From Ginglymostoma cirratum (lineage: Eukaryota), in NCBI GenBank assembly GCA_024137785.1, contig JAHRHZ010000119.1, positions 3,618,171 to 3,682,170 on the forward strand: a DNA stretch of 64,000 nt. Direction: 5' to 3'. Below, piece after piece: positions 8,601 through 56,580 of the stretch. The notes under the pieces were generated by a model. It did not search any database. It was given only the letters and a program-made list of their open reading frames with translations, and was not told the DNA's origin. Numbering within the stretch: the first letter of the stretch is position 1; every line of letters starts with the position of its first letter. The position numbers and the translations under genes were made by a program.

Positions 8601-11600
8601 TGATCCTGCCATGGTGAGGGACTGCTACAGCATCCAACCGGTCACAAAATAATACTGAAAACTGAGCAGCTGTCAGCTGATATTCCCACTTCTGATCCTA
8701 TGAAGTGGAGGGAAGGTTGGTGAAGCAGTTCAAGGCGTTTGGGCCCACAAACCCCTGCACTGATGTTTGGAGTGGGAGACAGCACCAACAAGGGATTTTG
8801 GTTGTTGGTCAGCTACACGGGACTTGAAATCAGGACCGCCCCCCACCCCCCACCCAAAATGTCATGACCTACAGAACAGAGTCTTCAAACAGTCTGCTGA
8901 TCTGAGATAAAGAGGTTTGATTTCCAGCAATTAAGAAATCAAGTCAAAACTCATAGCACAAATTTCAGGTTCAGGATGTTAAGTGAGTAATTAAGGCTAA
9001 TGTACTAACCCCACTAAGTGGTCAGATTCAATACTGCTTCAATTGCTCAACAGCATTGTCTGTGACATAGAGCTGCAAGTGGTTCCAACCTGCAAGGAAC
9101 AAGCACAAACTAGGTGTAGGCCATTTGGCCACTCAAGCTTGCCCTGCCATTCAACAAGGTCATGGCTGACCTGCCCCCAAATATGAACCCCTTTCATTAC
9201 AGCTCAGCATAGCCCTCAACTTCAATATTTTAAAAAAAAACTTAAATGTTCTGACCTAGCCCACACAACTCTAGGATAGAGAATTCCAGACATACATTAT
9301 TCTTTAGGAGAAAATATTCTATTCCATCCTGTTTTTAAAAAAGGTGTCCCCTTGTTTGGTAAGCTCACCCCTACGTGAAGATTCATTCTTATTTAGGGGA
9401 ACATTTCAACGGCTATCACATTAACCTCCTTCAAAATCTTAGGCACAGAATTGGCTGGATCAGATGTCTGTCACACACCAAGAGTTTATACCTACTACTA
9501 AACGTCCAACTTTTGATGAACTCCTTCCTCATAACTAAAAAAGTTGCCCCTATTATCTTAGTGACCATTGAAGAACTTAGATTCAGCAAAATGAACGGGT
9601 ACAACTAATGAATAACCATTTCTCAGAACTTAGAATGAAGGCCAGTGATTAGGTAATGGATTTCAATCAGTATTTACCAAGTCCTGTAGAAATTATTCTC
9701 TTCAAGTTCCTCAACCTTGCTGGACCCCTTCATTCACCACAACGCAAAGATATATCCACTTTAAAATTTACCACTCACTCATCTTTCTAGGCTCCATATT
9801 GCTTCCTGGTGATCAAATTGTTCAATTTATTGCAATTTCATGATCAAAGTCAGTTTACATTTACAACTTCCAATTGGGTTGTTGGATCAAGTATCTACAG
9901 TTTGCCTCTAAGCAGGCTGGTTGGAACCAGTGACAGCAGTGGTTCAAGGAGGCTGGATAGGAAATGGAGGGTGTCAAACTGACTGCGGAGAATTTTTGGG
10001 CAAGTCTAGTGTTGTTTTGTACAAAACTAATGTGGTTGGTCATTAATTCTATTGTTTTTCAGTTTAATGCTAATCAGTATAAGACTGGCAGAGTTTTGAA
10101 GCTTCAAGTGAAATAGCAGCTTAAAGATCAGCTGAAACTGGATTCTGGGCTTTTTTGTCCAAAGAGCACATTAAACTAGCCATGTTAGTGAGACATTGTC
10201 AGAGTTAAGTGATTCAGGGAGTAAAGTAAGAAAATTCTGAACTATTTCCACCTTCTGGAATTGCTTCATCCTCTGCTACAGGAAAATGAGCTAGTCAGTT
10301 GGAATGCATCTAAGTTATATTCTATTCCTGTAGCTCAAAATGGCATAGCCAGTTAGCAAGAATAATGAAGCATGATCTTAAAGTGGAATACAATTATATG
10401 GTTACGTAAAACCCAAAAGGATGGCAGGTAATGTGTCAATAAAGCATGTCAGAAGTTCTAAGTTGGTTCAGAACAAACATCTTGAGCAAGTATTTGAAGT
10501 TCAAACAGTCTCAGTTCATACTTTATGATCTAGGTTGGAAACTGATGGACCGCTTTGTAGAACACCTGCACTCAGTCCGCAATAAACAACTGCGCCTCCC
10601 AGTCGTGAACCATTTCAACTCCCCCTCCCGTTCCTCAGACGACCTGTCCATCCTGGGCCTCCTGCAATGCCACAGTGATGCCGCCTGAAGGCTGCAGGAA
10701 CAGCAACTCATTCAGCCTGGGAACCCTGCAGCCCAATGGCATCAATGTGGATTTCACAAGCTTCAAAATCTCCCCTCCCCCAACCGCATCCCAAAACCAG
10801 CCCAGCTCATCTCCACCTCCCTAACCGGTCTTTCCTCTCACCTATCCCCACCTCAAGCCACACCCCCATCTCCTATCTACTAACATCATCCCGCCCCCTT
10901 GACCTGTCCGTCCTCCCTGGACTGACCTATCTCCTCCCTATCCCCCCACCTACACTCACCTTTACTGGCTCCATCCCCGCCTCTTCGACTTGTCTGCCTC
11001 CTCTCCACCTATCTTATCCTCTATCCGCCTCCGCCTCCCCCTCTCCCTATTTATTTCAGAACCCTCTTCCCCGCCCCCATTTCTGAAGGGTCTAGGCCCA
11101 AAACGTCAAGCTTTCCTGCTCCTCTGATGCTGCTTGGCCTGCTGTGTTCATCCAGCCCCATGCCTTGTTATCTTGGAAACTGATTGAGGTTGGTTACAGG
11201 GATCCAGAGGGCAGGAGCCTCAGCCTTTGCACAGACTGGACAACTGAAGTTCTTTTAGCTTGCCTGGATGACTATCAAGGCTGCATGGCAGCTGAGCTAA
11301 CTGGCCATGGCACATCAAGCCACTCCAGATAGAGAAGATCAAGAAATTCATGATAGTAAAGGGTCAGTGCAGTGAGGGGAAATAGACACTATTAATGACT
11401 TCTGCTCTTTGCACAGAACAAGAGGAAGGGGTGGAGAGTATGAATTTGAGAGTCAACCAACAGATACAGCAAAAATTTACAATGATAAAACTAAAGGCTC
11501 TGTATCTGAACAGATACAACATTCAAAGTGTGTGTAAACAGAAAATGGGCAAGTCTGGTGGTCAGGAGAGACATGGCTGCAGCATGACATTAGGACATGA

Positions 11601-14600: not shown

Positions 14601-17600
14601 ACCCACTGCATCAAAACACTGACGTTAGGGTTCCTTGAAAATTTTTACTTGGTCAAATTTGAAGATGTACATGCTCATACCAAACACTTCATTTCCTGAA
14701 TTTTAATGCAAATACACAATCTTAAGTTGAAGATTCATTTGATGCCAGGGTGTTGAGACCTTTGGATGGTTGACAGGTCAATACCTCCAAGTTCATTTTG
14801 AACATACCTACAATTGGATTTCTAATTTCCATGAAATTTAGAGTAGTTTTATTACTTTAGGAATATACTCATGTTAGGAGAACAGTACTTCAACAGAAAG
14901 CACTCACCACAGTGGTGAAAGCTCCTAGTGCTGAAACAATAAATCTGAAAAATCTTGGCCACGGTCAAGTCCAGAACATCTTGAACTGTTGAGCTGTTTC
15001 TAAAGTCTTAATTGGTTTAGTTTTAAAGGATCCTGGACAAGGTTTGAGAAGATTTGTAGCTCAGGTTGTTGAATTGCTCACCAAGTTGGTAAATTTGTTT
15101 GCAAACATTTTGTCACCATGCTAGGTAACACCCATGTGTCTCCAGTGAAGCATTGCTTTGCTGGGATAGGTGGCATCTCTTCTGGATTTATTTTAGTCGT
15201 TGGTATACAGGGTCCAGCTCTGTGTTTTGTTAGTGGAGTTCAGGTTTGACTGCCAGGCCTCCAGGAATTCTTGTCTCTCCTCGACTTGTCAGAGGATGGC
15301 GGTGTTGTCCCAGTCAAATTGCTGTCCCTCTTTGTCCATGTGTACTGTAATGAGTGATGGCAGGTCAAAGAGGGACAGCAATTTGACTGGGACAACACCG
15401 CCATCCTCTGACAAGTCGAGGAGAGACAAGAGTTCCTGGAGGCCTGGCAGTCAAACCTGAACTCCACTAACAAAACACAGAGCTGGACCCTGTATACCAA
15501 TCACTAAAAGAACAAATCTGGCTATGATATCACCTATCTCAGCAAAACAAACAAATAGCAAGCAGGACAAAACACCAATGCTTCACCAGCAGTGCAGTGA
15601 TGTTACCTAAGGTAACAAATGTTTGTGAACTAGCACAGAGCTAGCAAGTTTGTTAACAGCAGTATCCTAGGCCCTATCTAGTCTGGTCAATAAGACTAAT
15701 CCTTCACTGCAGCTGAAAAATAACCAGGAGGAACAGCTGATGTTTTTACAACAATTTAAAAACCTTTTGTTGATCCTTTTATGGACAAACTTGATCGTTA
15801 CTAGAGAAGGATTGAAAATTTACACAAAACCCAAATAAAAAAAGGTAGGTTTACCCTGGTGCTTAAATCAGCTCAGCAAATCAATGCATCTTAAAGCAAA
15901 CCAAGCCTTGGTTTGCCAACATGTTGCTTGGCAACCCACAGAAAATGCACAACTTTTACTTTTGACTAAAGCAGCTTGGTTACTTCTACTCAACCAACCC
16001 CCTCAACTAGGGACATGCATCAAGTGCAAAGTGACCAAATCAAGTCCCCCCCGCTGCCATTCCATCTCAGATACGTCACAGCTGTCAGCTAACTTGACCC
16101 CACGAAATCAAACCACCTGTTCATATACCCATTTGAGTGTTCCTTTTGACCCAAGTTACACTTCTCAGTCTCATGCTCAGCCGGTCATTTCCTGAGGTTT
16201 AGCACTGATATCCACAAGCAGTACTTTCTACCACTATTGTCCATGTTCCATTTGTGACCCTCAAAAGTTCTCAACCCTAAAAACATCAGAAAGAAAGCGC
16301 TGATCACTGGCTTTGTCCCTCCTAGTGCTCCACAACTTACATCACTTGTACCCAATTCTACTTTTATTAGCCCCAACCTTCTAGCATGTTCTCACACTTA
16401 ATCTTCAGTTTTCTTCACAACTTCCATTACATGCCAATATCCCACAGGAGAAACCAGATGACTGAAGTGGGGAAACTAGTTCCATACAACTGGCTGGAAT
16501 CAACCTTCCAAGATGTCCTCACTGCAGGCAACACTAAAATTTTTCCAAATTTAGGCTAAAAGCATTGCTTAGACTGGTCAGTTTGAAGTTTCTGACTTAA
16601 GGTGATTTATAGACAGATTTCATGCAGGATTTGCTGTCCTTCACATCAAATAATCCAAATCATTCTTGTCCTTGCAAAGAAAAAATCCTGGCTCATGCTC
16701 TGGATCAAAAATCCAGTCTTTGATACTTCACTCTACTAACCTCCCACACCTGTAATAAAAATCAGCCCATTCCTTGCACTCCCACAAAGAGCGCCAAGAC
16801 CTCAAATCAACTGCAATTTTTCAGCCTTCAAAATTCCAGATACGTTTCTTCCTAAAAATTTCTTAAACATTGCCATGTTCAATTTAAGAGATGACAGTTC
16901 CACAGAACAAGTACATTAAAAACCAGTATTACTTTCATATTCCTTTCCTGTAAGGAACTGGTAAAGGCAGCATGGCACAGCCAGTTTGTTAATTTAGGGC
17001 AAAGCTCACTTACATATTCAGAGAATGGATAGCCAAATCAACCCTACCAAAAAAATAAGAGCCAAATCCAGGGCTCATTCCCCAAGAATAATCCTCCTTG
17101 CACCACTCCACAGCTGGAGCAATATCAATAGCAGCTACATGGTCTGTGACCCAACCTTAAACCTCCTTCCAATCCCAAGCCCCCGTGGAACCTAAAATAG
17201 GTTAAATGGAACCACCACCCCATTAGTTACCATACATCAAGCAAAGAAACATAAAAAGTGGACTGTTAATCACAAATGCACCAAGCCTATAAAAGCTGAT
17301 GTACTTTGGACATTATGGCCAACTATTGCAAGATCTGCTTAAGGCAAATGATTGATGCTTCTATTGTTAAGTACAGGGGATACTTAAAAAGGATTAAAGT
17401 TTTTTGTCAAAATACTCAAATCACTACAGGAAAAAGGATCAGCATACTGAAATCAAGCCAACTAATTTATGATAAGTTTATTAAAACAGCACTTAGTTCT
17501 TTGCATTTGACAGCTCCGTCCTGTATTAAAAAGTAAAAAACTAGAAATTTCATGCTGTGAATGTCCACCACCTTACATGCAGTGTACTTTTGTTGTCCAA

Positions 17601-20600: not shown

Positions 20601-23600
20601 ATCTAACCCGGAAGCGTTTTTCCTTGTAATCTCTCCCCTCGCGCACATCTCGGTCACGCAAGTCTTTGTCTCGGCCATCTCGATCAAAGGTTCTCGATGC
20701 AATTATCCGTCCACTGCCAATTCGCCGCTGAGCGCCCAATCCACGGGAATTTTCATTTTCTTTATTTTCTAGTGGGCTCCCAGATCTCCGGGAGTTCGAA
20801 GTACTAATCACGTGACAGCCTCCACCAAAGCTCCGGCGCTGTGGACTGAGCACAACATCAATATCTTCTTCTTTGATTCTCTCGCGTGGATCTGGACACA
20901 AGACATAATTGTTACTTGTACAACAAGGATCTAGGAGTTCAAGAACAGCCTGCTTAAAAGAATCATTTGCTACTTCTCTTCGACTTACCACCTCAAAAAG
21001 GAGACTGCCACACTCAATCTTTTTAAGTCTTAAATATGAAGTCATTAGGTGTAAAATGACAGTGTCAACATCATTGAGTGTCCTCAATCAGGGGTACTTA
21101 ACAGACCAGCGATTGAAAGGGTAGCTACATGGCAGAGTTCAGCAGCAGCACACTATGCAACAGGGCTCAACTGCTGAATACCTCTGTCCAATCTAGAACA
21201 AACTAGCATTTTCCAATTCAAGAAATAAAAAGAACCTAGTTAAAACTTAGTCAGCAAGTACAGGTAGAAGCATACTTTGCCAGGTATTTTAAGAAAACAG
21301 AAAAGTTTTGAGAATAAACAAATGCAGTGGATCCAATACAGATGTTCAAGTGGTAAACCTCTCAAGGCTATGAAAATTCTGAAGTGACCCCAAAAAAGGG
21401 TTTCCAGCAGCACTCAAGTAGATTTACATAACTGCACGCTGCTCACTAGTTTGCTAGTGACATAGCTTAATGTCAACCCCAAGTCCATTTCTGCATTTGG
21501 CAGATCAAGAGCATTTAGACTCTCACTTATGCAACAAACATGAAACAAACTGCAAAGCAAACATTTAGGAGAACTATAACTGCATTAGTTCAATGACAAG
21601 AGGAATGAAAAGGGGTAGGGGGGAAAATCACAGTGCACATGCATTAACCACTTGCAAGTGCAAACTTGTGTTTGGTTTTGGAAAGCCACGACATGAAGCA
21701 CAAGATTGGCCACCGTGCCAGTTGAGCATCCCACAATTAGATTTAAAACAAAAAGGACCTGTCACTGATCAAGATCCCCAATCATACCTGAATGTGTATT
21801 TTGTCTACCACAAGGTGGGACTGAGCAACAGTAGGAAGGGCAACATTAGTTGCTTGTCAGTTAATGGTCAGTCATGTTCCTGAGAGTCTAGATGTGAGGC
21901 AGACCACATAAGGATGCAAATTCCTTAGGAATTTCTGTGAACCAGAACAGTGTTTAAATGAGGATAGCTTCATGCTAGTCATTTGAGACTAGCTTAATAT
22001 CCTGGATAAAAAAACCTTTCCACTACCTGCCATGGTCAAGGTGGAACCCAATATACTTGGAACATTATCATTTCAACAGAAGTCAAAACAATTAAACACA
22101 TTATTCCATCAATTAGTATTGTTAGACTGTTCAGTTAGGGAATCAAAGGAACCACACCTATTCAAAAATTTTTGGTCAGCCTCCCTCTTGCCCTGTAGGC
22201 AGAAAATTCTAATTCTCCGTCAGTATCCTTTTTACAAGTCAGTTGCATCTGCCTCATTTAAGTGAGGCTATCTAAATCCAAAAGTTGACACAGATCAGGC
22301 TAATAAAGTGTGTTCAGGAATGTTCAGCATGACAAGATCAATCAGATCCTAGGCAGGTGGACATAATGTGCATGAAAATTGGAGATTCTGTCCCTGTAGG
22401 CAAGCAAAAAAGTAACACAATCTCTCTGCAAGATGCTAATAATTCTCACACACCATTTAACCTATAAACTGCCAATTCCAACCAGTGACTGGGAGACCGA
22501 ATCAGCAATGCCATAGTAGTGTGCATGCACAATACAATTGTAAAGGACTTGGAAAGATGATCTACGATCAGAAGGACTCAAAGCAGAAAGACACCTAATT
22601 GAATCCCATGGAGTCATGCTACTAAAAACAGTGCTCCCTTACTTTACCTTCATCTGTAAAGGTGAATGTTTACATTTGTTTGTATCTGCACGTGTAGTGG
22701 TTTACATTTGTGAAATTGGTCATATTTATCTGACTAGAACAGATTTGCAGTTTGTACTTTTACCACAAACCAGTGGTGTTTTCTGTTAAGTGGATGTGAT
22801 TAGACAAGAAAACTGGGGAAATGTGCAAGTTGATTCCATTAATTTGAAAAAGCAATGTAATTAGTACTCAGGGATAAAAGGTACTGCAGATGCTGGAGAG
22901 TCTGAGATAACAAGGTGTAGAGCTGGATGAACACAGCAGGTCAAGCAGCATCATCATGGGAGCAGGAAAACTTGACGTTTCGGGCCTAGACCCTTCATGA
23001 TTTCTGATGAAGGGTCTAGGCCCAAAACGTCAAGTTTTCCTGCTCAACCTGTGTTCAACCAGCCCCATGCTAATTAGTACTCGGCACATGCACACACCCT
23101 GTTTGATGCTGTCAAACTCAACAAGGATCACATGAGAGCACCACTTCCTGCATGCACACCCTCCAAGTCTTGGATGGCATTGTACTTGCTTCATTTTCAC
23201 TGGCTCAAAATCCTGTAATTGTCTAACAACAAAATCTGCTCCCATCGATTAGTGACAAAAAAAAAAGGAGCTCACCACTACTTTTAAGGGCAAGGAAGCT
23301 GACACTGTAAGCAGCATTCATTCATCGAACAAATAAGAGTGATCGAATTAAGTTCCCTTAGCCGTCATGAGAAGATTGGAATTTGTTTCAGTAGCATTGA
23401 TTCACGCCTCTGGATTTTCTGTCCAGTAAAGATCTGACCAATTCAGATGCCTTGCCCATCAAGTTAACATGCAAGTTGTTTTTTTTTTTTTTTTAAAAAA
23501 GAAAACTGAACAGTCAAGGGTCTTAATGTTCAAAATAAAAAGAAAAAAGTAGTGAGTGCCAAGTGTACTGGTTCAATACCAGGCTTTAATATCACAGGCA

Positions 23601-26600
23601 GGGCTGGGGAACTAAGTCACCCTAGGTTAAGGGCCAGAAGCGTGATGCCAAAATAGTAGTAATAAAGCTCATTGCTGTCTTCAGACACTGGTAAACTCAA
23701 AACAAATACATAGTCCACCTACAGGATGTGGACTTTAATATAAAATCTTGCCACAAAAGCAAAACATCAACTATAGCAAAACAAACGTGACTCTGACTCA
23801 GTCACCTGCCATTCTCCGCTTGAGAACTGCCCTGTCCAGATCTGAAGAATAATCCTTCTTTGTCCCATCCGATGGTGAACTCCTGCCCGAGCTGGGGTAC
23901 AAGGATGCGTGCCATTTCTCAGGGTCCCAGATACCTTCACTATAGAAATCACAAGCACAAAAACTCAGATGAGTAAATGGACTCATTTAACATAAACTGA
24001 GAGTTTTAAAAAGCTGTTTCATACATCCTGTACACTTTGAAGCTAGGGTGTGTCAACAATCAGTGTGGCAAATCCATTCTTCAAATCCAGTTAACATGTG
24101 ATAGTAAATAAACTTTACAGGATTTGGATTGAGGCTAGTTTTAATACAGCAGGCAGACAGTTGGTCAATCATGAACAAAACCAAAGTTGGGAAAAGCTCA
24201 GCACGTCTGCCAGCATCTGTGAAGGAAACAAAAAATTAATATTTCAGGTCCGGTGACCCTTCCTCAGAACAGTTCTGAAAGAGTGTCACTGGACCTGAAA
24301 TGTTAGCTTTTTTCTTTCACAGATGCTGCCAAAGTTATTGGAAAGTCTCAGCAGGTCTGTTTTTTGTTCATGATTTACAGCATCTGCAGTTCTTTCAGTT
24401 TTTAAACTTAGTTGGTCAATCATGCTTGCTCTTGAGAATTTCAGACAGTCCTACCACCTCTTTCCCATCAAGGTTAGAAAGTAACTTTGAAATTACTACA
24501 TCTGCATCACCATCCTTTCAGGTTGGACTGGCCATATCACAACATGCTGGGCAAAGTCAAAGTCATTGTCATGATATCATGGTTTTTTTTTTTAAAAAAA
24601 TTACCTTAAGTTGCTATGATAGACTGGAGAAGTTCACTAGACTTTCATACGCCACTGCAAAACAACTAAGTAATTCAGCAGTTACCAAAAAGACCAATTA
24701 AACATTGGAACTACAGGAGGCTCAAAATAAAGATCAACAAAACAGATCTATTGGAAAGCAGACTTATCTGGCCAAGTTAATTAAATATCCAAGTGTAAGC
24801 ATATACCCTTAAACCCTAAAACATTCACACCAGCAAGTGGACAAAGAATTACTTGGAAAGAAATCATTTAGCCAGTTAGTTCTTCAAATGGGACAAAAGA
24901 AAAAAGGTGTGGAATACTCATTTGGCAGTTGGCTGAACTTTCTGCATTTTCAGATAGGTGTCAAGCATGGTCAGTTGTTTCTAGAATGTGAGAATGCTAG
25001 AGTCTGGAAGAGACCGTTCAGCCCATCAGATCTGCAAAGCCATGAAGAGATCCCACCCTAACTCCATCACTCCACTTGACCATGGCTAACACAGCCCACA
25101 CACAATGGGCAATTTGAGAACAAATACAGCACAAACAGGTCCTTCAGCAACCACCACCACCCCTCCCCCACCACCCTAAGCCAATGCAGCCACATTTTGC
25201 TTTTCATAGCAAAAGGGTCTTCATTTACAGAAGAACCCATATCCCTAGTAACTGACCTCTCCACCCTGGGAAAAAGGCTCATACTTTCTATTCATTCACA
25301 ATCTTACAAACTTCTATCAGGTTGCCTCCAACCCCCTGCATTCTGGGAAAAATAAACCCAACCTATCCAACCATTCTTCATTGCTAACATCCTCGTAAAC
25401 ATGTCCTGTACCCTCTCCAAAGCATCCACATCCTTCTGGTAGAGCGATGACCAGAACTATATATAATATTCCAAGTGTGGCCTGACTTAAGTTCTAAAAA
25501 GCTGCAGCACACCTTGTCTATCTTGTACTCAGTGTCCCTTCCAATGAAGGCAAGCACACCATAAGCCTCACTACCTTATATGCCTGCAGTGCCACCTTCA
25601 GTCATGTGTAGGCTTGCACACCCAGATCCCTCTGCATATCAATAATCAAGGGTGCTGCCATCGACTGTACAATTTCCACCTCTACTTGACTTCCAAAATG
25701 CATCACCTCCCATTTGTCCAGATTAAACTCTGCCATTTTTCTACCCATGCCTTCAACTGATCTATAAACTGCTATATCCTCTGACAACCCTCCTCACTAT
25801 CTGCAACTCTAATCTTTGTTCCATCTGCAAACTTACAAAATGAGACCAGCCATGTTTTCCTCCAGATCATTTATCCTCGATTATAAACAGAGGTCCCAGC
25901 ACTGATCCCTGTGGAACACTAGTCACAGCCTTCCATTCTGAAGGAACATCCTTCCACCACTACCCTGTCTCCTACGATTAAGCCAGTTCCTTGCCAGCTC
26001 ACCCTGTATGACCGAGTCCAGATGCTGACATCTGATTTTGCTTTTTGTCTGCCGTGAGGCTTTACTGAAGGCCATGTAGACAGTATCAATCACTTTTCCC
26101 TCAATCATCTTAGTCACCTCAAAAACCTGAGGAAGTTAGTGAGGCACAACCTCCCCTGCACAAAACCACACTATCATTAATAAGTCCATTTGCTTCTAAA
26201 TGCTTATAGATCTTGTCCAAGAATCTTTTCCAATAATTTTCCTACCACCGATGTGGGACTCAAGTCTAATTTCCAGGACTATCCCAGCCACCCTTCTTAA
26301 ATAATGAGACAACATTGGCTATTCTCCAGCCCTCCTGACCTCACCTGAGGCCAAAGAGGATACAAAGATGTCAGCCAATGTTCCAGGGGTTTGTTCTCTC
26401 ACCTCCCTCAATATTCTGGGGAGATCCTATCAAGACTTGGGGACTTATCTACCTTAATACTATAACAGAAAACACTTATTTAAATAGAAACTTGGCTTAG
26501 AAACTCAACACTCCCTTCCAAGATCATTCTCCACCAATTCCTTCTCTTTGGTGAACACCAAAGTATTCATTCAGGACTTTAGCTATGTCTTCTGGCTCCA

Positions 26601-29600: not shown

Positions 29601-32600
29601 CTCCATAATATCTGATCCTAGATCCCCAGCTGCTCAAGCCTGACATAGAACTTAACTATGTTCAATTTTGAAAAATCTAAATCCCAGGGTGCTAGCCATC
29701 AAATGAGAGACTAAGCATTTTTTTTGGGACACAGACCTATCATGAACTAGAATATTAGAGCTACATTGCTGTGCAGCTGGACTCAAGGCTCTACATTATT
29801 GACCACCCAGTTGTATGGGTACCATTGAAGTTCACCTTCATGCAACTATAACATGGAGATTCCACCCCTCCTATCTTCAATTGAGATTTTCATTATTAAA
29901 ATCAGGTCACAGCACTAGTGTTCAAAATTCAGGGTCAAACATGTGATTGGATTACCTAATTAAGATAGCAGAGAGCAGTCCACAGACAGCAAGTTTTCTG
30001 AAGTAAAGCTATCACGGAGAAGAGAAATACTCTGAAGGTGCATTCATCCATCACTTTAGAAATTTGGGCACTTCGAACTATTTTAAATCAAATAATGCGC
30101 AAACAGTATTTTTTTAAAAATTTGAATGCCAAGTCAATTTAAGAACCAGCTATATTTATAAAACAAACAATGACAATTTCAAACTGACTACATTGCTCAA
30201 TTGTCATGCACTTCAGCCTGAAAGACTTTGGAATCTACTTAACAGCAACAATTTTTGAAGTGCTCACGTTTTAAGGTTTACCTGTCATATTTTTCCAGAA
30301 GGCATGCTGGTCTCTGCTTGGCATATGGATAGTCTTTGATTTCCAGTAATTTTTCCTGCAAGAAAAATGCACTCAAACTAATGATTTTATATCATCTACA
30401 TTGCATGAATGCTTAAAAAACACAGCTTTTAATTGCAGATATTTCAATGTATACATTAGAATATCACAGGCAAAGGACTTGCTTCAATTGTATTTAACAC
30501 TGGCAGACTGACACCAAGTGTGGCGTGCAGTTCTGGTCCCCTTCGTCAAGGGAGGATATATAATATCACAAAAGGAATGCAATGGAAGTTCACCATACAA
30601 TTCCAGAGGTGGCAGCACTATCCTCGGAGGATAGATTATAGGATTCTGGACCCATATTCTCATGCTTTTAGCAGAATGGAGTTATGTTAATACACAATTC
30701 TATAAAAGGGACAGACGATAAGAGTTGATACAGGCAGTATGTTGCCCTATACTATCTTAATGGTATCTTGACTCAACAGTCCCAGATGAAAACACAGGCC
30801 ATTAAAAACACACCAGGATCAACTTCAGAGGGTTGAGAAACTCGGAATTTTCTACTCCAGAAGGATGAGAAACCTAATTAACTCAGTTCACAGGTTGATA
30901 AATATATAATTTCTAATGGCTTCAAGGGATTATGGAGAAAAGCACATTAATTTGGCAAAGATAATGAGCCATTAACCTACAGCAGCACAGCAAAGGGCTT
31001 GATGACCAAATGTCTGCCCTGACAGCTTCAGCAGATAGTGCTGTCACCTTCATTCCACCCTCAAATGTCAATTCCTACTACCTGTTACTATGCCATCTGG
31101 CCAAAACCCAACATCTCCCCTTGAAGGATAATTGCTATCTGGTCTGCAGCATTGTATGTCTGGTGTCAGATTCAAATTGGTTGAGGTGTGGCAAAAATAA
31201 GTTAACCAAAAAACTTGAAGTAACTCAAATTTAGGGGAAAACTGGATTGTGGGCTGTAGCTTAGACAGTCGCGTCAGATTTGGGGGAAGCAGGATTAAAA
31301 TTGTCTCTATCCCTATGCAACATCCAGTCAACCAGTGTTGCATAAACAATTGTGTAGATATTGAACCTAGCTGCACCCAATGCTGAAGTAAACTCAGTGG
31401 ACTGGTCTAGAGGCTGCAAATTTCAAAACACAAGCTGGAAGAATCTTAGAGATAAGATTAGAGATAAGGCATTTCCGATGAAGGGTCTAGGTCCGAAACG
31501 TCAAGCTTTCCTGCTCAGCCTGCTATGTTCCTCCAGCCCCACACCTTGTTATCCTGGAAGAATCTTAGCTTTTTCTGGACAGTTTAGCATAAACCAGGAA
31601 TTAGAATTCACTTAAAATGTTAAACTGCACATACTTCATCCTGGCATGACAAGATACAGCACAATTACCCGATTGCCCAGTACTTAGCTTTAAAAATTGA
31701 CACAGCACCCAGACTGTGGTCTAAATCTTAATGGGGGAAGCCATTAAAAACCTGTGGCATGCCCCACAAGTGAAGCCTTCCCAAAACCAGTACTAATTCC
31801 ATTCCTGCATCATGTTCGGAGCATTGCCCACCTCCCAACTCAAAGCTTCTGCCGTCTATTTGAAGACCTGACATACAAGGGATATCAGTTACCTAATGCT
31901 CTGGTAACCTTGGGACTTTGCATAGGTACGGCATCAACAACTGCATCATTTCTTACAAGAATACTCACTTGCACAAAAGATTCATCAGTAGGCACAAAGT
32001 GTACAGGCATACTGGTAACGAGTTAATCATACCACACCAAGGTTCCTTGCTGTACTGCAAAGTGTGACTTAAACTTCCAAACAGGAAGTGCTTAGTCATC
32101 AAGCCCTACAAGTCTGAAACAGCTATCGAACATTTATTCACAATCGCCTCTAGATATCAACTTGGATATCGGTAACTATTTTGTCCTAAGTTACTACAAG
32201 ACACTAAATCATTCCCAAAAACCTCAACACCCATGCTGAGTGATTAACAATAGCATTGTCACATTCAACTCTTTGCATTAACTGTGCAAATGCCAATGAT
32301 GATTCAAGAAAATTTTCCAACCTGATCCTGCAAATTGCTTCCAGTGGACATTTTTCTTCAAAACCCATCTAAGGCAATATGAACTACATGTTGCATATAG
32401 CAGAGCTAATTAGCTGTCCGTCACACAACTTCACGGTGTTGAAATTAGGTAGTTCAAATCATAACCATTTGTAATGCCTGATATTCGAAACATATCCCTC
32501 AGACTAAGACTACCAATACAATACCATTGAAAAAGCTGCCAGTCATGATGTGCAGCTGCAAATATTGTACATTCTCTCCAGAAAGATCCTAATCACTAAG

Positions 32601-35600
32601 TAGTTGCTTCATCAGTACAGTTTACTTGAGGCAATCCATCCAATTGGAAATTCTAGATCTAGAATCTAGATATCTGCACAAGTACAATTTGATCAATTAA
32701 TATTGTTTACTGTGCATTGGTTCAGCTACTTGCCATGGTTATAAAATGGTCACATTATTTAAGTTAAGCTTTTTTAAACTCACTTAGTACATGGACACTA
32801 ACATGTAAGCAGTTAGGAATCAAGTTATAGATCAAATTACCACTGCTAGGATTGAATAGAGTTACTTGCTTCAATCACGCAACATTTTTGAACGATGTAC
32901 AGAATTTGTTAGATTAATGAAATTCAGCCTTGATCTTAGTTAATGGATGGATTTCCACCACCCCCCAAACATTGAAAATTATACCTCAAAGTGATTAATT
33001 TTCCCCTTCCTTTTAAATAGACTACTTGCCACAACTCTTTGCTGCAAAGAGCACACATTGGAGACCATGCCTCAACCTCCAAAGCTCTTCAGATATTGCC
33101 ACTCCAAAAAAGGTACCCAGAGGAATTCCAATTAGGAAACAGGTTGATATGAATATCAATAAAACAGCACAAGCATTTTACATGATAAACAAAACGTAAA
33201 GTGAGAAGGATCAAGGGAGTGCATTTGCAATCTTGAGTGGCCCAAGAGGCATTTGGATAAAATGATTATGAGCACAAAAAGCAGAGAAATTACACATTCT
33301 GAAGAGTCATATCAGACTCAAGTTAGCTATTTAGCTCTCCACAGATCCTGCCAAATCAGATTTTCTCCAATTTTTTTAAAAAAATATTTCCAGCATCAAC
33401 AGTATGTTGCTTTTATTCAAATTATGCTGAGCATTAAAAACAGCTCATGATAGGTCACAAGTAACAGTGTGGAGCTGGAGGAACACAGCAGGCTAGACAG
33501 CAGAGGAGCAGGAAAGCTGACATTTTGGGTCAGGACCTTTCTTCAGAAGAACGGCCTGCTGTTTTCCTCCAGCTCCACACTTATCTCCAACGCCAGCATC
33601 AGCAGTTCTTATTATCTCTAGGTCACAAGTAGCCCAGTTCTGAAAGACATCATGAAGTGTGACAAGATATTTTGAAAGTTTGCACAGTAGATGTACTATC
33701 CTGGTGGGTGCATGGCCCAGAGATGCACAATAAGAAAAGCTATTACCATTAAAATGATGGTTACAAGGACAAGTGGACAGATTTAATATCTGGTCAAGAG
33801 ATGGAGAAGAGGCTTCAGTGAATCGCAAGGACTCGAAACTTACTGCCCAAAAAGGAGTGGACAAAGTGGAATCAGTGTAAGAAAATCAGATTGCACTTAG
33901 AGATTAAATTTATCAAACTGTAAGGAATGGACACAGCTAGACTGCTCTGCCGAAAGCCATTTTATACGTGGGCTGAATGGCCTGTACTGCAAACAACTCT
34001 GCAATTTCATAGCTCCGTTTAAAGCAGAGTGGGATGGGGGGCTGGTAGTGGTCAGGGAGCAGGGCGTATACTGAATTACATATTGGTCAGGATGAGGAAC
34101 ACTGCTCTCCAACATTCACAATCCTCAAGAGTTTCCCTTCATAAGGATCACTGCTGCATGTGAAGTGACTTTGAGTGAATCACGGATGGATCAAAGCTGA
34201 GATCAAAGCTCATTATGACATCTCCTTGCCTGGAAAACATACAACTTCAAGTACTGCACCATACACATGCAGCCCTGAGCATTAATAAATTCAACGTATT
34301 TGAGCACAGTAATAACACCAATTGGCTTTGGCAACCACAGGTCGGGGGAGCAGGAGGCCAGGAATAAGATACACAACCAATGAGTAAAGGCGCATGGGAG
34401 GCTGAGCATATGGAGATGGTGGTCAGCTGAGATCAAGAGCACACACAATAAAAAAGGGAGTACACCACTTGCATCTGTTCCACCATTCGATATGATCAAC
34501 ATGCACGCACACAATTTTTGGCCACTTAGTGGTTATGAATTTTGCAGGCTCACCACTCATTGGGTGAAAGGATTTCTCATCTTAGTCTTCAAAATTACCC
34601 CACATTTCCTCCCCCACCATCACAAACATCCTTCCTGCATCTAACCTACCTAGTTAGGTTAGAATTTTATAGGTTTCCCTTAGATCCTGCCCTCATTCTC
34701 AACTCCAGAGAATACAATCCTAAGCCAAACCTTTTTAAAAAAAAGACAATTCAAATCAGTCAGTGCAGAAACAAGACGTATAGCCACAATTCATACAGGG
34801 CATTGATGAGGTCACACCTTGACTACGGTATGCAGTGTTGGTCTCCTTATTCAAAAGGAAAGATGTTCTTGCTAAAGAGATATAACAGTACTGTGCCGTT
34901 CAGAGATTTGTTCTGTCCTGGTCATCTTGCATGCTGTCATAGCAGTGCTGGAGTGTCTGCTTCAGAAGCAATGGGTAAACAGCTTTGTGCTTTAGTGGGT
35001 TTTTTTGAAAACAAAAGACAGAAGCAGCACGAATGGATGGAATCAGGCTCACAATGACCCAGGCTTTTACTTTCACTTTGTTGAAGCTAGGGTTTTTGGA
35101 GTTGAAACTACTAGATGTAGCTCTCTCCCTCTGCTGCACTCAAAAGCAGAAGTTCTCTCTCTACTGTTAGATTGCTTATTTTTGTATTCCTTTCTCCTAG
35201 ATAGCTCGTTAGGAAGATGTTTTACAAATTTGCTGCTGCCAAGGGCGTATTTATGGGACACTATATTGGAACAGTTGAGTAGTTAAACAATGTTTAGTAT
35301 TTCAATAGAGTTAAAGTTAGGCTGATTCTTGTTTGTAATTTAACTGTAAGAATACAGTGTTTCACTCAGAGCCTAGTAGTGTACCAAATCACAACTGGAA
35401 CACAGCATCTTACACTTTCCTTTGAGTAAAGGAATTCCAGCCTTGCTATATTTTGAGGGGGTTTGGTCTGGTCCATAAGAGGGAATGCAGTAAAGCTTTA
35501 CCAAAAGCAGCTGTGAACTTGAAAGATAAGTCTAAAGGACAATTCCAAGTGTGAAATTGTACACCTTGGAATGACACATCGAGATAAACAATTGGCACAT

Positions 35601-38600
35601 AACAGTACATACAGATTCTCACATTAAAAACATCATTTTGATGCCACAGCCAAAGTCAAAATCCAACACACCCTAGCGATCAAGCAAGTGTAAATTCACA
35701 TTTTATATCATTTAAAAATAAGAGTCTCCGATGTATTGGCTACTTAAATACCAAATACTTAAGCCAAGTCACAACTTGATAAACCATTCACGTGGATTCA
35801 GAAAGGTTCCCACTGACAACTAAACTCAATGTCAGCAATGTTACATCTGCACCCAGACAGGACATCCTGGAGGGCACATCCACAGAGGCAAAATGGATAG
35901 AGTTCAAAAATAAGATGGGAGCAATCACTGATTGGATTATACTACAGGCCCCTCAACAGCCAAGAGATTGAGGAACAAAAATATAGGTGGGTTATGGTAA
36001 GGTGCAATAAAAAGAGTTGTCATAGCGAATGACGAACTTCCCTGGTATCAGCCGGGAATCCCTTAGAGCAAGAGTTTAGACAGGGCAGAATTTGTTATGT
36101 GGCATCCAAGAGGGTTTCCTGAAACAGTATGTGGATAATCCAGCTACAGGCGGGGCCATACTGGACCTTGTATTGACTAACGAGCCTGGCCAGGAGACAG
36201 ACCCTTCAGTGGGAGCACATCTTGTTAAGTGAACACAACCCCTTAAGTTTTAACTCACTCAGATAGCAAGAACTGCTGATGTTGGAGTCTGAGATAACAA
36301 TGTGTGGAGCTGGAGGAACAGAGCAAGCCAGGCAGCAGAGGAGCAGGAAAGCTGACGTTTCAGGTCTGGACCCTTTTTTCAAAAATGAAGAAAGGTTCTG
36401 ACCCAAAGTGTTGGCTTTCTGCTCCTCTGATGCTGCCTGGCCTGTTGCATTCCTCCAGCTCCACACATTGTTATTCCTTAAGTTTTAAGACAGCTATGAA
36501 CAAGGATAAGTCAGGACCTCGAGCGAAGGCACAAATTGGGAGAGGGCAAATTACATCAGTGTTAGGCAGGAACTAGAGTGTTCGTTGGGAGGAGCTGTTA
36601 TCAGGCAAGTCCAGATTTGACATGTGGGAACTATTTAAAGACCTGCTGAGGAGAGTTCAAGTCTGGTGTGTTCCAGTAAGGAGGAAGGATAAGGGTGGTA
36701 AAGTAAGGGACCCTTGGATAATGAGGGAGTTTGTGAATTTAGTCAAAAAGGAATTTAAAAAAACACATAAGGAAAGCTAAAATCAGATAGGGCTCATGGG
36801 GAATACAAGAAAAGCACCCAAGCAGGAAATTAGGAGAGCAAGAGGGCATGAAACGATCTTGGCCAGTAGAGTTAAAGGTATTCTATGGATCCATTTAAAA
36901 ACAATAGGATAATTAGGGAGAAGGTAAGACCGCTCAAGGTGAAAGGAGGGAAACTTGTGCTTGGAAGCAGAGAATATGGGCATGATCCTAAATGAGTACT
37001 TTGCATTAGTATTCACCGAGAAGAATATGGAGAATAGATTTGTGTGGACCATGCTAAAAATGCATTGAGATCAAGAAAGAAGTGGCGTTGATCTCTTGAA
37101 GACCAAAGTGGCTAAGTTCCCAGGGCCCGATGGTATCTAGCCCAGATTATTGAGAAAGGCACGACAGGAGATTACTGGGAACTTGATCAAGATCTTTGTA
37201 TCCTCACCAGCTACTGGAGAGATCCCAGAGTACTAATGAATGGCTAGTGTTGTTCTTCTGTTCAAGGAGGGAACTAGAGATAATCTGGGAAACTACAGAC
37301 CAGCAAGTCTCACGGTGGTTGGAAAGCTATTAGAGAATTCTTAGGGACAGGATTTATGCACATTTGGAAAAAGCATGGCCTCATTAGGGCCACTTAGCAT
37401 TAGCTTTGCGCAGGGCAGGTCATGTCTTACTGAATGATTGGCTTTCAAGGTGGTGACAAAGGTGATTGAGGGTAGACAGTGGATGTTAATAAGGCTTTCG
37501 ACAAGGTCCCTCACGGTAGTCTCATCCAGAGGATTAAGACGCATGGGATCCATGGTGACTTGGCCACATGGATTCAGAATTGGCTTGCCCATAGAAGCTA
37601 GAGGGTATTGGTGGCATTTTCCAGGCTGGAAATCCATGACTAGTGGTGTCCTGCAGGGGATCTGTACTGGGACCTCTGCTGTGTTAGATTTATATAAAAG
37701 TGACTTGGATGAAAATGTAGACAGGTAGGTTAGCAAGTTTGCAGACAATATAAAGATTGGTGGAGTTAGGGATAGTGTAGAAGATTGTTAAAGGATACAG
37801 CAGGATATGGGCAGAGATACGGCAGATGGAGTTTAATCCGGGTAAGTAAGGTGCTACACTTTGGGAGATCAAGTGTTAAGGAAATATAGCTAGTGGCAAG
37901 GCTCTGAACAGCTTTGATGGACAAAAGGATCTTAGGGGTTCAAGTCCATAGCTCCCTGCAATTAGCCAAGTAGAGAGGATGGTAAAGGTGGTGTATAGCA
38001 TGCTTGCTTTTATTGGTTGGAGAATTGTGTACAAGTATCAGGATGTCATGTTGCAGCTTTTAAGATGTTGATTAGGCCACAGTATTGCATTCATTTCTTG
38101 TCACCCCACTACAGGAAAGATGCAGGGGCTTTGGAGCGAATGCAGAGAAGGTTTACCAAGATGATGCCTGGACTAGAGGTTTAGCAGTACAGAGGCTAGA
38201 AAAACTCAGTCTCTGCTACTCAAAGGAAAACAGAGCAGGGGAACCTGATACAAATCTATAAAATTGAGAATGCATAGATAGAGTTGAAATGTCTAATACT
38301 AGGGGACATGCATTTAGGGTGGAGGTGGGGAGTTCAGAGGAGACACCAGGACCAATTTTTTTGTTTAAAAAAGCAGTACCAGTCTGGAACACTGCCAAGG
38401 TGGTGGTAGTAGAGGCATTTAAAAGGACTTATTCCTTGCATATTCATGTCATTGTCTAAAAGGCATATAGACCAACAGCAGACAGAAGGGATTAGTTTAA
38501 TTTGGTGTCATGTTTGGCACAATATCATGGGTTGAAGGGCCGCTCTGCTGTACAGTTCTATGTTGTATCATTTTAACACTTCTAGATCAAATCCTAAAGT

Positions 38601-42069: not shown

Positions 42070-42195
42070 AGAACAGTTCTGAAGAAGAGTCATGACAACT
42101 TGAAACATTAGCTCTCCAAAGATGCTGCAAAACCTGTTGAGTTTCTCCAGCATCCTCTGTTTTTGTATCACATTTTCATCATCTGCAGCATTTGA
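42070..42195 (+). mobile_element. Penelope-derived hammerhead-bearing arm
   Basis: ctgaagaagagtcatgacaacttgaaacatt (42079-42109) followed by the family tail gatgctgc...gagtttctccagca...catctgcag. Confidence 0.7.
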
Positions 42196-44458: not shown

Positions 44459-44721
44459 AGAATCCCTGCAGCATGGAAGCAGGTTATTCGGCCCATCGAG
44501 TCCACACCGACCATCCAAACATCTCTGTAACCCCGCATTTCCCATGGCCAATCCACCTAACCTGCACATCTTTGGACTGTGGAAAGAACCAGAGCACTCA
44601 GAGGAAACTCATCCAGACACAGGGAGAAAGTGCAAACTCCAAACAGACAGTCGCCCAAGGCTGGAATTGAACCTGGGGCCCTGTGAGGCAGTGGTGCTCA
44701 CCACTGAGCCACCGTGCCACC
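44459..44721 (-). mobile_element. HE1-type SINE with 7-bp TSD
   Basis: Head gtggcacggtggctcagtggtgagcac, V-domain and LINE-like tail. TSD ctaacat at 44452-44458 and 44722-44728. Confidence 0.88.
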
Positions 44722-45186
44722 CTAACATCTGGAAACTTGTGTCAAAATTCAGACTGCTGCCCCAGAAACTAGTCAAGCAGCAGCCTACACAGTCATACTC
44801 ATAGAATCATTCCTTGTAGACAATGCTCCGGACATCATCATCCCTGGATATGTCACCCCCCAGCAGCAAGACAAACCCACTAGAGGTGGCAGTACAGTGG
44901 TACACTGTGCAGGAGATAGTTATCCAAGGAGTCGTTGATATTGAGTCTGGGCCCCATGAAGTTTCATACTGTCAGGTCAAACATGGGCAAGGGAACCTCC
45001 TGCTGATAACCACTTAGCATCCCTACTTGGCTGATTATTCAGGTTTCCTCCTTGTTGAACATTACCTGGAGGAAGCACTCAGGGCGGCATGGATGCAGAA
45101 TGCACTCTGGGTGGGGGAACCTCAAAGTCCATCAGCAAAAGTGTCTCAGTAGTATCACCACTGACCAAGCTGGCTGAGCTATTGTG

Positions 45187-45460
45187 GAATCCCTGCAGTG
45201 TGGAAACAGGCCATTAGGCCTGTTTAGTCAACACCGACCATCTGAAGAGCATCCCACCCAGACACTGTAACCCTGCATTACCCATGGCTAATCCACCTGA
45301 CCTGCACACCTTTGGACTGCGGGATGAAACCAGAACACCCAAAGAAGACACAGTGCAGAATATGCAAACTCCACACAGACAGTTGCCTGAACGTGGAATC
45401 AAACCCAGATCTCTGGCGCCGTGAGGCAGCAGTGCTAACCAATGAGCCACTGTGCTGTCC
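45187..45460 (-). mobile_element. HE1-type SINE
   Basis: Head cagcacagtggctcattggttagcactgctgcctcacggcgcc; tail ttccacactgcagggattc. Confidence 0.88.
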
Positions 45461-45481
45461 TAAAGTTCGAAAGGATATTCT

Positions 45482-45834
45482 TAGAATCCCTACAGTGTGG
45501 AAGCAGGCCATTTGGCCCAAAAATTCCACACCAACCCTCCAAAGAGCATCCCGCCTGGACCCATTCCCCCTACCCTATCCCTGTAACCCTGCATTTTCCA
45601 TGGCTAACGCACCTAACCGACACATACCCGAACACTATGGGCAATTTAGCATGGCCAATCCACCTAGCTTGCACATCTTTGGACTACGGGAGGAAACCGG
45701 AGCACCAGGAGGAAATCCATGCAGACACAGACAGAATGTGCAAACTCCATGCAGACAGTCACCCGAGGGTGGAATCGAATCTAGGTCCCTGGCGCTGGGA
45801 AAGCAGCAGTGCTAACCACTGAGCCACCATGCCA
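45482..45834 (-). mobile_element. HE1-type SINE (most complete copy)
   Basis: Head ggcatggtggctcagtggttagcactgctg, B-box ggttcgattcc-like gattcgattcc, V-domain, tail ttccacactgtagggattcta. Confidence 0.9.
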
Positions 45835-46042
45835 TCACCTATCTCCATTCCGCCTACCCTCCCCTTAGCCCCACTCCCGTCCCTCGATTTATTTCTGGGC
45901 TCCCCTCCCCCTCTTCAGTCCTGACAAAGGGTCTTAGCCCAAAACATTGACTTCCCTGCTCCTCGGATGCTGCCTGACCTGCTGTGATTTTTGAGCTCCA
46001 CATTTATTGACTCTAGCTTCCGGCATCTACAGTCCTTTTTGC
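45835..46042 (+). mobile_element. Penelope 3' end fragment with decayed hammerhead
   Basis: C-rich tract plus agtcctgacaaagggtcttagcccaaaacattgact, homologous to 11020-11170. Confidence 0.7.
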
Positions 46043-47099
46043 CTCCATGTCCAAATGTGTTTAGTCCTAAACCATATTCATGTTTCAGCTGAGAAGTGGT
46101 TTGTAATATTCACACTCCACTAATGATAGACAATGACCATCTCCACCAATAGGGAATCTAAACATTATCCCCGAGCACTCCCACACTATCAATATCAATG
46201 GCCAAAAACCAAATTGGATCAATCATGCACAAAGTGTGGCTGTAAGTGCAAGTCTGAGGCGGGAATTCTGTGACAAATAATTCAGCACCCACCTCCCATG
46301 CCTGTCCATTATTGATAAGCTTTCCTGCTCCTATGATGCTGCACGACCCGCTGTGTTCATCCAGCTCCACACCTTGTTATCTCGGATTCTCCAGCATCTG
46401 CAGTTCCTATTATCTCTGGGATACAAGCTAGGAGAGCCTGAATGTGTGCCGCTCCAACAATACTCAAGAATCTTGACACCATTCAGAAAAATTAGTCTGC
46501 TTGATTGGCATCTGATGCACCACCTTAATTATTTATTCCCTCCACCACTGATGCACAGTAACAGCAGAGTGAACCATCTGCAAGATGAACTGCAGCAATT
46601 CCTTATCGCTTCTTCAACTTCACCTTCCAAACTCATTGACCACTCCCACCGGGAAGGATGAGGGGAGCAGATATGTGGGAATACCACCACCTGCGTGTTC
46701 CCTTCCAAGTCGCAAACCATCCTGACTTGGAATTATCTAATTAGTTTTTCAATGTCACTGGGTCAAAATTCCAGAACTCCCTTCCTCATAGCACTCTGGG
46801 TTCATGCACATTCCAAGGGCTGTAACAGCTCACTACCGGTTTCTCAAGGACAACTAGGAATGGGCAATAAATGGGCATCGAAGCCCACATCCTGTGAATG
46901 AATTTTTTTTTTAAAAATCGCACTGATACTCAGTTTGAGTTCTGTCATTCTCACTCATCTGCAGATCTCTTTACAGCCTTTCTTCAAACTCAAATAAAAT
47001 AATTGAATCCCAGAAGTTTTTCCTTTATTATTTTGGACCAAATGTGCACACTTGTTGTCTATGTCTAAGTGCTCCTAGACAGAATGGTTTGCTCAGAAA

Positions 47100-48189: not shown

Positions 48190-48295
48190 CAAACACAGAG
48201 ATTGCTGAAGGAACTCAGCTAGTCTGGCAGCATCTGGGGAGAGAGAAACAGAGTTAACATTGTAAGTCTGGTATGATTTTTCTTCAGAACTGAAC
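48190..48295 (-). mobile_element. Penelope-derived hammerhead-bearing arm (decayed)
   Basis: Reverse complement cagttctgaagaaaaatcataccagactt...gttaactctg...cagatgctgccagac. Confidence 0.65.
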
Positions 48296-51240: not shown

Positions 51241-51254
51241 ACATAAGACCATTG

Positions 51255-54595: not shown

Positions 54596-54659
54596 GTAAA
54601 TTGAGGAAAAAAAGTCAATGAAATAGACATTCTGCTCCAATGTCCTGTTTATAGTAGAA

Positions 54660-55364: not shown

Positions 55365-56580
55365 CAGGTCCCCCTGCCATGGTTGACAGGGCCCTCAACT
55401 GGGTCTGACCCATATCTCGCACTAAAAGCACAGCAGATCAGACAGCGTCCGAGGAACAGGAAAATCAATGTTTTGGGCCGAAACGTTGACTTCCCTGCTC
55501 CTCAGTTACTGCCTGATCTGATGTGCTTTTCTAGCCTCATGCCTATAGACTATGATTTCCAGCGTCTGCAGTCCTTGTTTTCTCCATGTCTCACACTTCT
55601 GCCCTCACCTTTTTCACCACTTTCCCAGACAATAGGGTTCTCCTTGTACTCATTTTCCACCCAATCTGCCTTTGCATGCAAACGTTCATTTTTTGCCATT
55701 TGCACCCCCTTCACCAGGACACCACATCTTCCCTTCCTCTGTCAGCACTCCACAGAGACTGTTCTGTCTGCAACATCTTGGTCCACACTTCCAAAACTCC
55801 TAACATTTCTTTACTCCCCAGTGGCAGCCTTCCCATGCAATTGCAGAAGTTGTAACACCTGCCCAATTACCCTCTTCCCTCACTATCTAAGGCTCCAAAC
55901 ACACATGAGGCATGATTTTCCTTGTACTTCTTTCCATCTAGTTTTACTGTATTTGCTGCTGTCAATGTGGTCTATTTTACGCAGGTGAGACCAAACACAG
56001 ACTGGGTGACTGCTTTGTGAAACACCTCCACTTTGTTGATCGGAATCACCCCAGACTTCCAGATACTTACCATTTCAATAAAACCACCATGCTCCTATGC
56101 TGGTATTTCTGTCCTTGGCCTACCATACTGTTCTAATGAAGCTCAATGCAAAGCTAGGGGAACAACACCTCATTTTATGTTTAGGCACTGTCCAGCCTCG
56201 AGAACGCAATGCTGAATTCCACAACTTCAGAGTATGTCCTCTGTACTCAATTTTTCTTAAATCGCCTCACCTTCCCTCGCCTGAGTCTTTTTGGGTTTGC
56301 TCTCAGTAGAGGACCCATTTGCTCCTTTTTACAGCTAACATTTACACCTGTTTTGCATATCTAGCACTCCTTCATCAGGATTGTCACTGCCTTCATCTTT
56401 AACCCTGAGTTCCCTCGCAATCTGTTTCACTTGCTTCTCTTCCCGCCTCTGTCTATAGCAGGAAAATCACAATTTTCCAGTCCTTTACAGTTCCGACCAA
56501 AAAAACACGCTAGACTTGAAATGTCTGTTTCTCTTCCACAAATGCTGCCAGGCCTGCTGAGTTTCTCCAGCATATTCAAT
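55365..56580 (+). mobile_element. Penelope-like element fragment (Neptune-type Cys-rich linker plus GIY-YIG endonuclease), with a nested palindromic element at 55424-55583
   Basis: RVLLVLIFHP, FPCNCRSCNTCP, FPCTS.../CQCGLFYAGETKHRLGDCFVKHL, then a family tail with a decayed hammerhead at about 56485-56575. The nested palindrome has an imperfect 14-bp TSD (ccatatctcgcact 55410-55423; ccatgtctcacact 55584-55597). Confidence 0.82.

Follow-up and report, generated by a model that had tools for sequence, protein, structure and literature searches.

Endonuclease-encoding (EN+) Penelope-like elements (PLEs) of the Pen2a_Av type are inserted as head-to-head inverted repeats with a one-sided tail of 30-40 bp and target-site duplications (TSDs) of variable length, and exhibit partial tandems and pseudo-long terminal repeats (pLTRs) with TATA and initiator (Inr)-like motifs (PMC3846280; PMC8557442, Fig. 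2). The origin of these inverted and tandem ends has been called open (PMC8557442), antisense self-priming being the explanation found in print (PMC3846280). Short elements consisting of one or two arms with a hammerhead ribozyme motif were examined in a 64,000-nt stretch of the shark Ginglymostoma cirratum (i.e. positions 3,618,171 to 3,682,170 of the forward strand of contig JAHRHZ010000119.1, assembly GCA_024137785.1; hereafter the window) and in a sample of the genome. An initial annotation of the window had described them as a non-autonomous, retrozyme-like family propagating as a unit. The elements are real but do not constitute a new ribozyme family, being ordinary products of PLE insertion: they are quite probably independent, dead-end products of three Neptune-like PLE families, in which both target strands prime in the 5' leader and the resulting cDNAs are joined head to head. 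The layout of inverted pLTR, one-sided tail and TSD is already published (PMC3846280, PMC8557442), the additions made here being an inferred start-site and cap signature. As compared to the Pen2a_Av scheme, the commonest product in the shark is minimal, containing the leader without an open reading frame (ORF), and the 5' ends cluster at the predicted transcription start.

The shark motif shares with the hammerheads of metazoan PLEs a complete core, an extra base separating residues 9 and 10.1, a G10.1-C11.1 pair, a palindromic minimal stem III and a stem I of 3-4 bp (PMC4209133); minimal PLE hammerheads cleave as dimers (reviewed in PMC6765202). Both scattered single motifs and pairs on opposite strands, spaced 100-700 bp, have been described for Schistosoma, and no shark appears in the available text of that study (PMC4209133). 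The shark motif differs in constituting the predicted first 32-34 nt of the RNA. The CUGANGA, GAAA and NUH core, stems I and II and a palindromic stem III were present in the majority sequences of the families and in many natural copies. These majority sequences fit the PMC4209133 descriptor, in agreement with the initial assignment to PLE-type minimal type I hammerheads. The extra A after A9, which the initial annotation had noted for the (+) hammerhead of chrysanthemum chlorotic mottle viroid (CChMVd), was also present and is a general trait of PLE minimal hammerheads (PMC4209133). A relaxed hammerhead pattern matched seven times in the window and not once in any of 20 base-pair-block shuffles. 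An Rfam scan gave no hammerhead family match up to E 10, the call being based on the PMC4209133 descriptor, and returned only sub-threshold hairpin matches, including microRNA. Stem I begins at +1 or +2 (counting from the first base of the arm) and differs among the families by compensating changes that keep the pairs.

Local alignment resolved 17 arms in the window, belonging to three related families (A, B and C) and not to the single arm sequence originally assumed. All ten loci of the initial annotation matched an arm, 33295-33415 only weakly (E 5e-4), and two further arm loci were found (Table 1). A GIY-YIG C-terminal fragment had been reported to end in the same arm, and this was upheld for family A; families B and C likewise follow GIY-YIG coding sequence. 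At one locus (L161), a 635-aa ORF gave matches to RVT_1 (E 1.3e-5) and GIY-YIG (E 1.4e-4), both narrowly short of the Pfam cut-offs, with Cys clusters preceding the GIY-YIG motif, i.e. the order reverse transcriptase (RT), Cys-rich linker, GIY-YIG. An RT, Zn-finger-like linker and endonuclease (EN) layout is common to Neptune and Nematis PLEs (PMC8557442). The parents therefore look Neptune-like, as previously suggested, in having the Zn-finger-like motif, whilst the layout fits both groups alike.

The N-terminal part of the ORF and the full element layout were found in L231-L234. A search with the ORF N-terminus identified 30 loci, with an arm directly before the ORF in 26 and pLTR, arm and ORF in register in four. 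In L231, the ATG lies at +171 (i.e. 171 nt after the first base of the arm), and the element ends with another pLTR and arm. These positions indicate that the arm is both the 3' end of the element and the leader of its transcription unit. In full-length family A elements the arm is preceded by the pLTR, with a TATA/Inr-like promoter, and followed by the ORF; in all three families the first base of the arm coincides with an initiator-like motif, and a TATA-like motif occurs some 30 nt upstream of it, as judged against the consensus forms of both motifs. Rotifer pLTRs carry the same pair of motifs (PMC3846280), and shark pLTRs with a hammerhead were likewise observed in partial tandem or inverted arrangements.

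Copy number was estimated from 93 arbitrary 10-kb regions on large contigs (L061-L100, L164-L200 and L235-L250), 43 of which were wholly N, leaving 486,888 bases. This sample contained 136 arms (68 A, 64 B and 4 C) and 30 head-to-head pairs, or 62 pairs per Mb, supporting the high copy number claimed at the outset. Extrapolation to 4.36 Gb gives about 1.2 million arms and 270,000 pairs, figures that are rough given the missing regions.

Arm 3' ends were found at two sites, near +99 (short, S) and +133 (tail-bearing, L) in family A and near +101 and +139 in family B, the interval corresponding to the PLE tail. One S and one L end were combined in 25 of 26 scorable sampled pairs (p 2.7e-7 against independent choice), and tail-to-tail pairs were absent from the arbitrary sample. 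With selected loci included, 176 pairs comprised 136 S+L, 6 S+S and 4 L+L combinations and 30 that were unscorable or extended into the ORF. Pair sizes ranged from about 100 bp to over 2 kb, and ORF-bearing inverted pairs of up to more than 2 kb kept the S+L pairing. This pairing matches the one-sided PLE tail and the two internal RT starts observed in vitro (PMC11167929). Orientation on the reference strand was S-left/L-right in 20 pairs and the reverse in 5 in the arbitrary regions and 9:9 in flanks, a difference that is probably due to sampling.

Repeats of 8-16 bp flanked 74 of 99 young pairs as compared to 8 of 400 random controls, bearing out the proposal that the elements are retrotransposed, with TSDs of variable length, and are not DNA-transposon miniature inverted-repeat transposable elements (MITEs). 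MITEs have a fixed TSD length and uniform ends; here TSD length varied over this range, the S and L ends were asymmetric and the centre was variable. Within the window, the inverted, back-to-back arms reported for several loci were confirmed at five (the palindromes of Table 1). Five of the ten non-coding elements had exact TSDs of 12-15 bp, whereas the sixth such TSD of the initial annotation belongs to the GIY-YIG fragment. No repeat of at least 8 bp was found flanking 33295, 42070, 46317, 48190 or 55424.

Spread of a non-autonomous retrozyme- or MITE-like palindromic family from master copies by means of PLE enzymes would account for the abundance of the pairs and for the excess of short over long arms, particularly in family B, where only 4 of 64 reach 20 nt or more upstream. 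Animal non-LTR retrozymes, proposed as PLE derivatives (10.64898/2026.07.22.740005), are likewise small, non-coding and PLE-related, with type I hammerheads and TSDs of >4 bp, but are tandem direct repeats with a hammerhead per unit and circular RNAs (PMC7229834; 10.64898/2026.07.22.740005). The short shark elements are inverted pairs or solo arms with minimal hammerheads, two of them on opposite strands rather than in tandem, and are exact pieces of an autonomous PLE; same-strand repeats occurred in partial PLE tandems. Independent origin of each copy, the outcome that the initial annotation itself had named as contrary to its proposal, is indicated by 60 distinct junctions among 61 unselected pairs. 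Both arms began at the start site in 9 of these pairs, one arm in 31 and neither in 21, and size was continuous from short pairs up to inverted pairs bearing an ORF. Many family B matches share a one-base centre, but this commonest centre was enriched by the query and was split 8:8 by orientation relative to the tail. All five main family A short-arm haplotypes also occurred in long copies with upstream PLE sequence, i.e. there was no short-only haplotype among them; haplotype frequencies differed in a pooled, query-biased set, and the two main types were similar in the unselected set. Distinct junctions, shared haplotypes and TSDs together fit independent insertion and not spread from a master, so that propagation as a unit is largely refuted and now very improbable.

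The 5' ends carry further information on the template. Of 136 sampled arms, 48 began at -3 to +4, 65 were distributed over +5 to +100 and 23 extended upstream, producing a pile-up 4 nt before the hammerhead core. Among loci picked by downstream sequence only (with 2 family A and 1 family B loci dropped for N), 12 of 27 in family A (-1 to +4) and 12 of 28 in family B (-1 to +5) started there. An RT that copies a cap leaves an added G. Of 34 short arms of family A that start at +1 and have no inverted arm nearby, 17 are preceded by C, 13 by G, 3 by A and 1 by T, so that G accounts for 13 of the 17 non-C cases (p 3e-4); copies retaining the promoter had C in 21 of 23. The TATA-like motif, the initiator-like motif and the apparently untemplated G suggest that the pile-up marks a capped transcription start, in which case the template would have been uncleaved RNA. 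Cleavage of the hammerhead in vivo was considered as a source of arm 5' ends and rejected: no peak was detected at the cut site, with 3 of 136 sampled arms and 0 of 27 (A) and 2 of 28 (B) downstream-selected loci starting within 1 nt of or near it, and the arm at 46317 is one such start in the window.

A mechanism consistent with these ends would begin with a staggered double cut, each target 3' end then priming on uncleaved PLE RNA, one at S and one at L. Priming in the 5' leader would yield a cDNA of 100-135 nt that runs off the capped end of the RNA or is truncated at random, whilst priming in the 3' copy of the leader would yield long, randomly truncated, ORF-bearing arms. A cDNA end joined to the other cDNA would give a palindrome, one joined to the target a solo arm, and one jumping back onto PLE RNA a partial tandem. 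A start, leader and partial ORF followed by a second arm from +1 (e.g. L006) fits such a jump after run-off. The short copies would be dead ends, lacking the upstream promoter and, in palindromes, having the hammerhead masked by the antisense arm. A near-complete family A ORF at L162:4881-8484, with its N-terminal part inverted without overlap, resembles twin priming on one RNA.

The closest biochemical parallel is the Poseidon element of Anolis carolinensis, for which the PLE protein, a predicted dimer, cleaves and extends both strands, uses mainly uncleaved RNA and starts reverse transcription at two internal sites bounding the tail (PMC11167929). The shark elements share the two tail-bounding starts and a hammerhead near the 5' part of the RNA and, by inference, the uncleaved template and two-strand extension; the Poseidon ORF begins inside the hammerhead, as compared to the ATG at +171 here. 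Two-strand extension is not tied to inverted insertions in the available text of PMC11167929, and a literature search covering few subscription papers turned up neither an account of these shark elements nor a two-nick model. A wider proposition is plausible but falls a little short of probable: PLE integration may be a symmetric reaction with double target priming, the two subunits of a dimer relying on different RNA starts, one S and one L, with the hammerhead forming the first 32-34 nt of the capped mRNA, cutting removing the cap and uncut RNA serving as template.

Two other routes were weighed against both-strand priming, and each appears unlikely. The second arm could be produced from a single template through self-priming or fold-back, a route that the Discussion of PMC3846280 proposes for an antisense RNA of rotifer PLEs and that would suit the near-constant identity of subfamily between the two arms and the overlaps of 1-5 nt often seen at junctions. 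Fold-back would nest one arm within the other, whereas the tail-less arm reached further 5' in 19 of 41 unselected pairs (reverse in 14, ties in 8) and was longer in 9 of 9 EN-selected family A pairs (L032, L040, L049, L050, L052, L056, L057, L059 and L161). As the tail-less arm often reaches further 5' whilst only its partner has a tail, both arms need an RNA template; an antisense template also leaves the pile-up at a sense initiator, with its added G, unexplained. The shark end geometry hence argues against the self-priming model of PMC3846280. The 9/9 excess in the EN-selected pairs contrasts with the near-even 19:14 of the unselected pairs. Alternatively, an internal promoter could drive transcription of the solo leader arms, which would then be mobilised anew as a partner of PLEs resembling a short interspersed element (SINE), beside by-product palindromes. 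Many solo arms do begin at about +1, Penelope of D. virilis has an internal promoter (PMC2377424), and leader depth far exceeds ORF depth in polyA RNA. This depth is mostly derived from copies embedded in other transcripts, however, all three families have the TATA-like motif upstream of +1 and the short copies do not contain it, and the lack of a short-only haplotype tells against such a partner as well.

Several observations weigh against priming of both strands on capped RNA. A polyA RNA-seq run exhibited no pile-up of molecule starts at +1, and 87% of polyA reads ran into unrelated flanks, indicating copies embedded in other transcripts. The cap-derived G was clear in family A only, where 17 of 34 arms have C, and family B gave no clear signal. 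In families B and C, the +1 region can likewise be read as a splice acceptor; splicing as the cause of the 5' boundary was rejected for family B, the one examined, as its short arms share no upstream exon. Pairs combining two families or clearly distinct subfamilies were not found: the two arms matched at 194 of the 209 diagnostic sites for family A and at 110 of the 132 for family B, and two or more differences occurred in none of 74 pairs of A and in one of 58 pairs of B. With both arms nearly always of the same subfamily, one RNA used twice and two RNAs from the same locus are indistinguishable. The in vitro start sites are alike on both strands (PMC11167929) and do not by themselves explain strict S+L pairing, and the internal promoter of D. 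virilis Penelope is TATA-less (PMC2377424), so that solo arms could be transcribable.

Private changes were rarely common to both arms of a pair (22 of 254 and 32 of 365), indicating that the arms are not being homogenised. Chimeras of A and B were considered as proof of two templates and rejected: of five adjacent cases (L007 and L288 among them), three read as A palindromes nested in older B copies, as judged by eye from flanking repeats. The nested palindromes (L160:2282-2616, L290:1303-1605 and L301:1209-1603) lie close to the B hammerhead, and in these three cases nesting may reflect a target preference for pLTR sequence.

Folding was predicted for transcripts of the palindromes, which form long hairpins (z -10.9 and -5.9 for two palindromes). 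The pairing probability of stem II was 0.0 in 17 of 17 folded palindromes, whereas these arms folded by themselves averaged 0.30. In these predictions the antisense arm zips up the sense hammerhead, and ribozymes in palindromes, which the initial annotation had expected on either strand, are predicted to be silent; this also tells against a family spreading as palindromic units. Inactivation of most copies at G12, a further initial claim, held for the window (5 of 8 core-spanning arms) but not for the genome sample (17 of 71). CpG decay in stem III was heavier (14/71 and 23/71 sampled arms). The whole core with its pairs was intact in 21 of 71 sampled arms and in 0 of 8 window arms, and the sole strict core-pattern match within the window was the arm at 42070.

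RNA-Seq data were dominated by embedded copies in an unstranded run (X22), a further set (X23) gave 25 reads, and no read pile-up was observed where the hammerhead would cut. Peaks of loose ends at +2, +98 and +131 to +133 simply mirror the genomic boundaries. Discrete RNA ends were absent from one polyA run and two contig sets, libraries of a kind that would miss circles. RNA editing was rejected as the source of an excess of A>G and T>C: with values close to 100% per site, this excess was attributed to locus-specific mutation.

The value of these elements is mechanistic and moderate, as a dataset on PLE integration: the end statistics speak for reverse transcription of uncleaved sense RNA primed at both nicks, and give exact predictions for the existing in vitro system (i.e. 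start sites, S+L pairing and the added G). Under the wider proposition of a symmetric reaction with different starts for the two subunits, roughly 10^5 palindromes and 10^6 arms would constitute a nucleotide-resolution record of PLE integration and would settle the origin of inverted pLTRs, tails and partial tandems. Repeat annotation would mistake the elements for MITEs or microRNA-like hairpins, and they seed many long hairpins in host transcripts.

Table 1. Features of the window (positions from the first base of the window; palindromes are given without strand, and locations of palindromes and of the 31435 arm include the TSDs).
Feature	Location	Strand	TSD	Remarks
EIF4E-T (4E-transporter) coding stretches	5362-5679 and 20569-21087	-		PF10477, E 2.9e-9 and 3.1e-13
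5'-truncated family A PLE	10547..11172	+	12 bp, 10535..10546 and 11173-11184	GIY-YIG C-terminus from 10548 with one stop and one frameshift, then untranslated region; TATA-like motif at 11048-11054; start site predicted at 11079; hammerhead carrying G12A and lacking 3 nt of the core; family A arm terminates near S end
Family A palindrome	22858..23082		12 bp, 22858-22869 and 23071-23082	Element 22870-23070; L arm 22870-22998 (-), +8 to +135; single G between arms; S arm 23000-23070 (+), begins +1, internal deletion, G12A
Family B palindrome	24159..24424		15 bp	Element 24174-24409; S arm 24174-24270 (-), L arm 24271-24409 (+); both arms extend to predicted start
Family A S arm	31435..31568	+	15 bp	Element 31450-31553; arm 31470-31553, start about +1; preceded by short remnant 31450-31469 resembling an inverted tail from its sequence
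Decayed family B-like solo arm, old	33295..33415	+	none	Core destroyed
A/C-type palindrome, older	33451..33631		13 bp	Element 33464-33618; S arm 33464-33546 (-); L arm 33555-33618 (+), start +63
Family A palindrome, older	36241..36488		13 bp	Element 36254-36475; L arm (-) from 36254, S arm (+) to 36475; cores decayed
Family B solo arm, old	42070..42195	+	none	Stems II and III degraded
Family C pLTR end	45836..46047	+		Absent from initial annotation; promoter region (-81), arm to L end, G12A
Family A solo L arm	46317..46417	+	none found	Begins at +33, where the hammerhead is predicted to cut
Family B solo S arm, old	48190..48295	-	none	Core decayed
Family C palindrome	55424..55586			Both arms begin near +15, inside stem II
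Decayed family B-like arm	56480..56580 (approximate)	+		Absent from initial annotation

As both arms of the family C palindrome begin inside stem II, neither strand has a whole hammerhead. The truncated PLE lies between the two EIF4E-T coding stretches, and the elements from 22870 to 36475 are probably located in upstream introns of this host gene. A GC-rich stretch at 39600-40450 is probably its promoter region, to judge from the reading frames. A second PLE type, perhaps of the Penelope/Poseidon clade, was present as a head-to-head pair at 15188-15512 (probable extent about 15090-15640), both arms of which encode a GIY-YIG C-terminus (150 nt, 97% complementary), with apparent decayed hammerheads farther out and no clear TSD. 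Inverted pieces resembling a long interspersed element (LINE) occur at 42577-42703 and 43524-43650 (127 nt, 93% complementary, 820 nt apart). An interspersed SINE-like family, which we take to be a shark SINE type, is clustered at 44460-45834, 28029-28267 and 29038-29123, and a long decayed LINE with RT-like frames occupies 57811-61630 on the minus strand.

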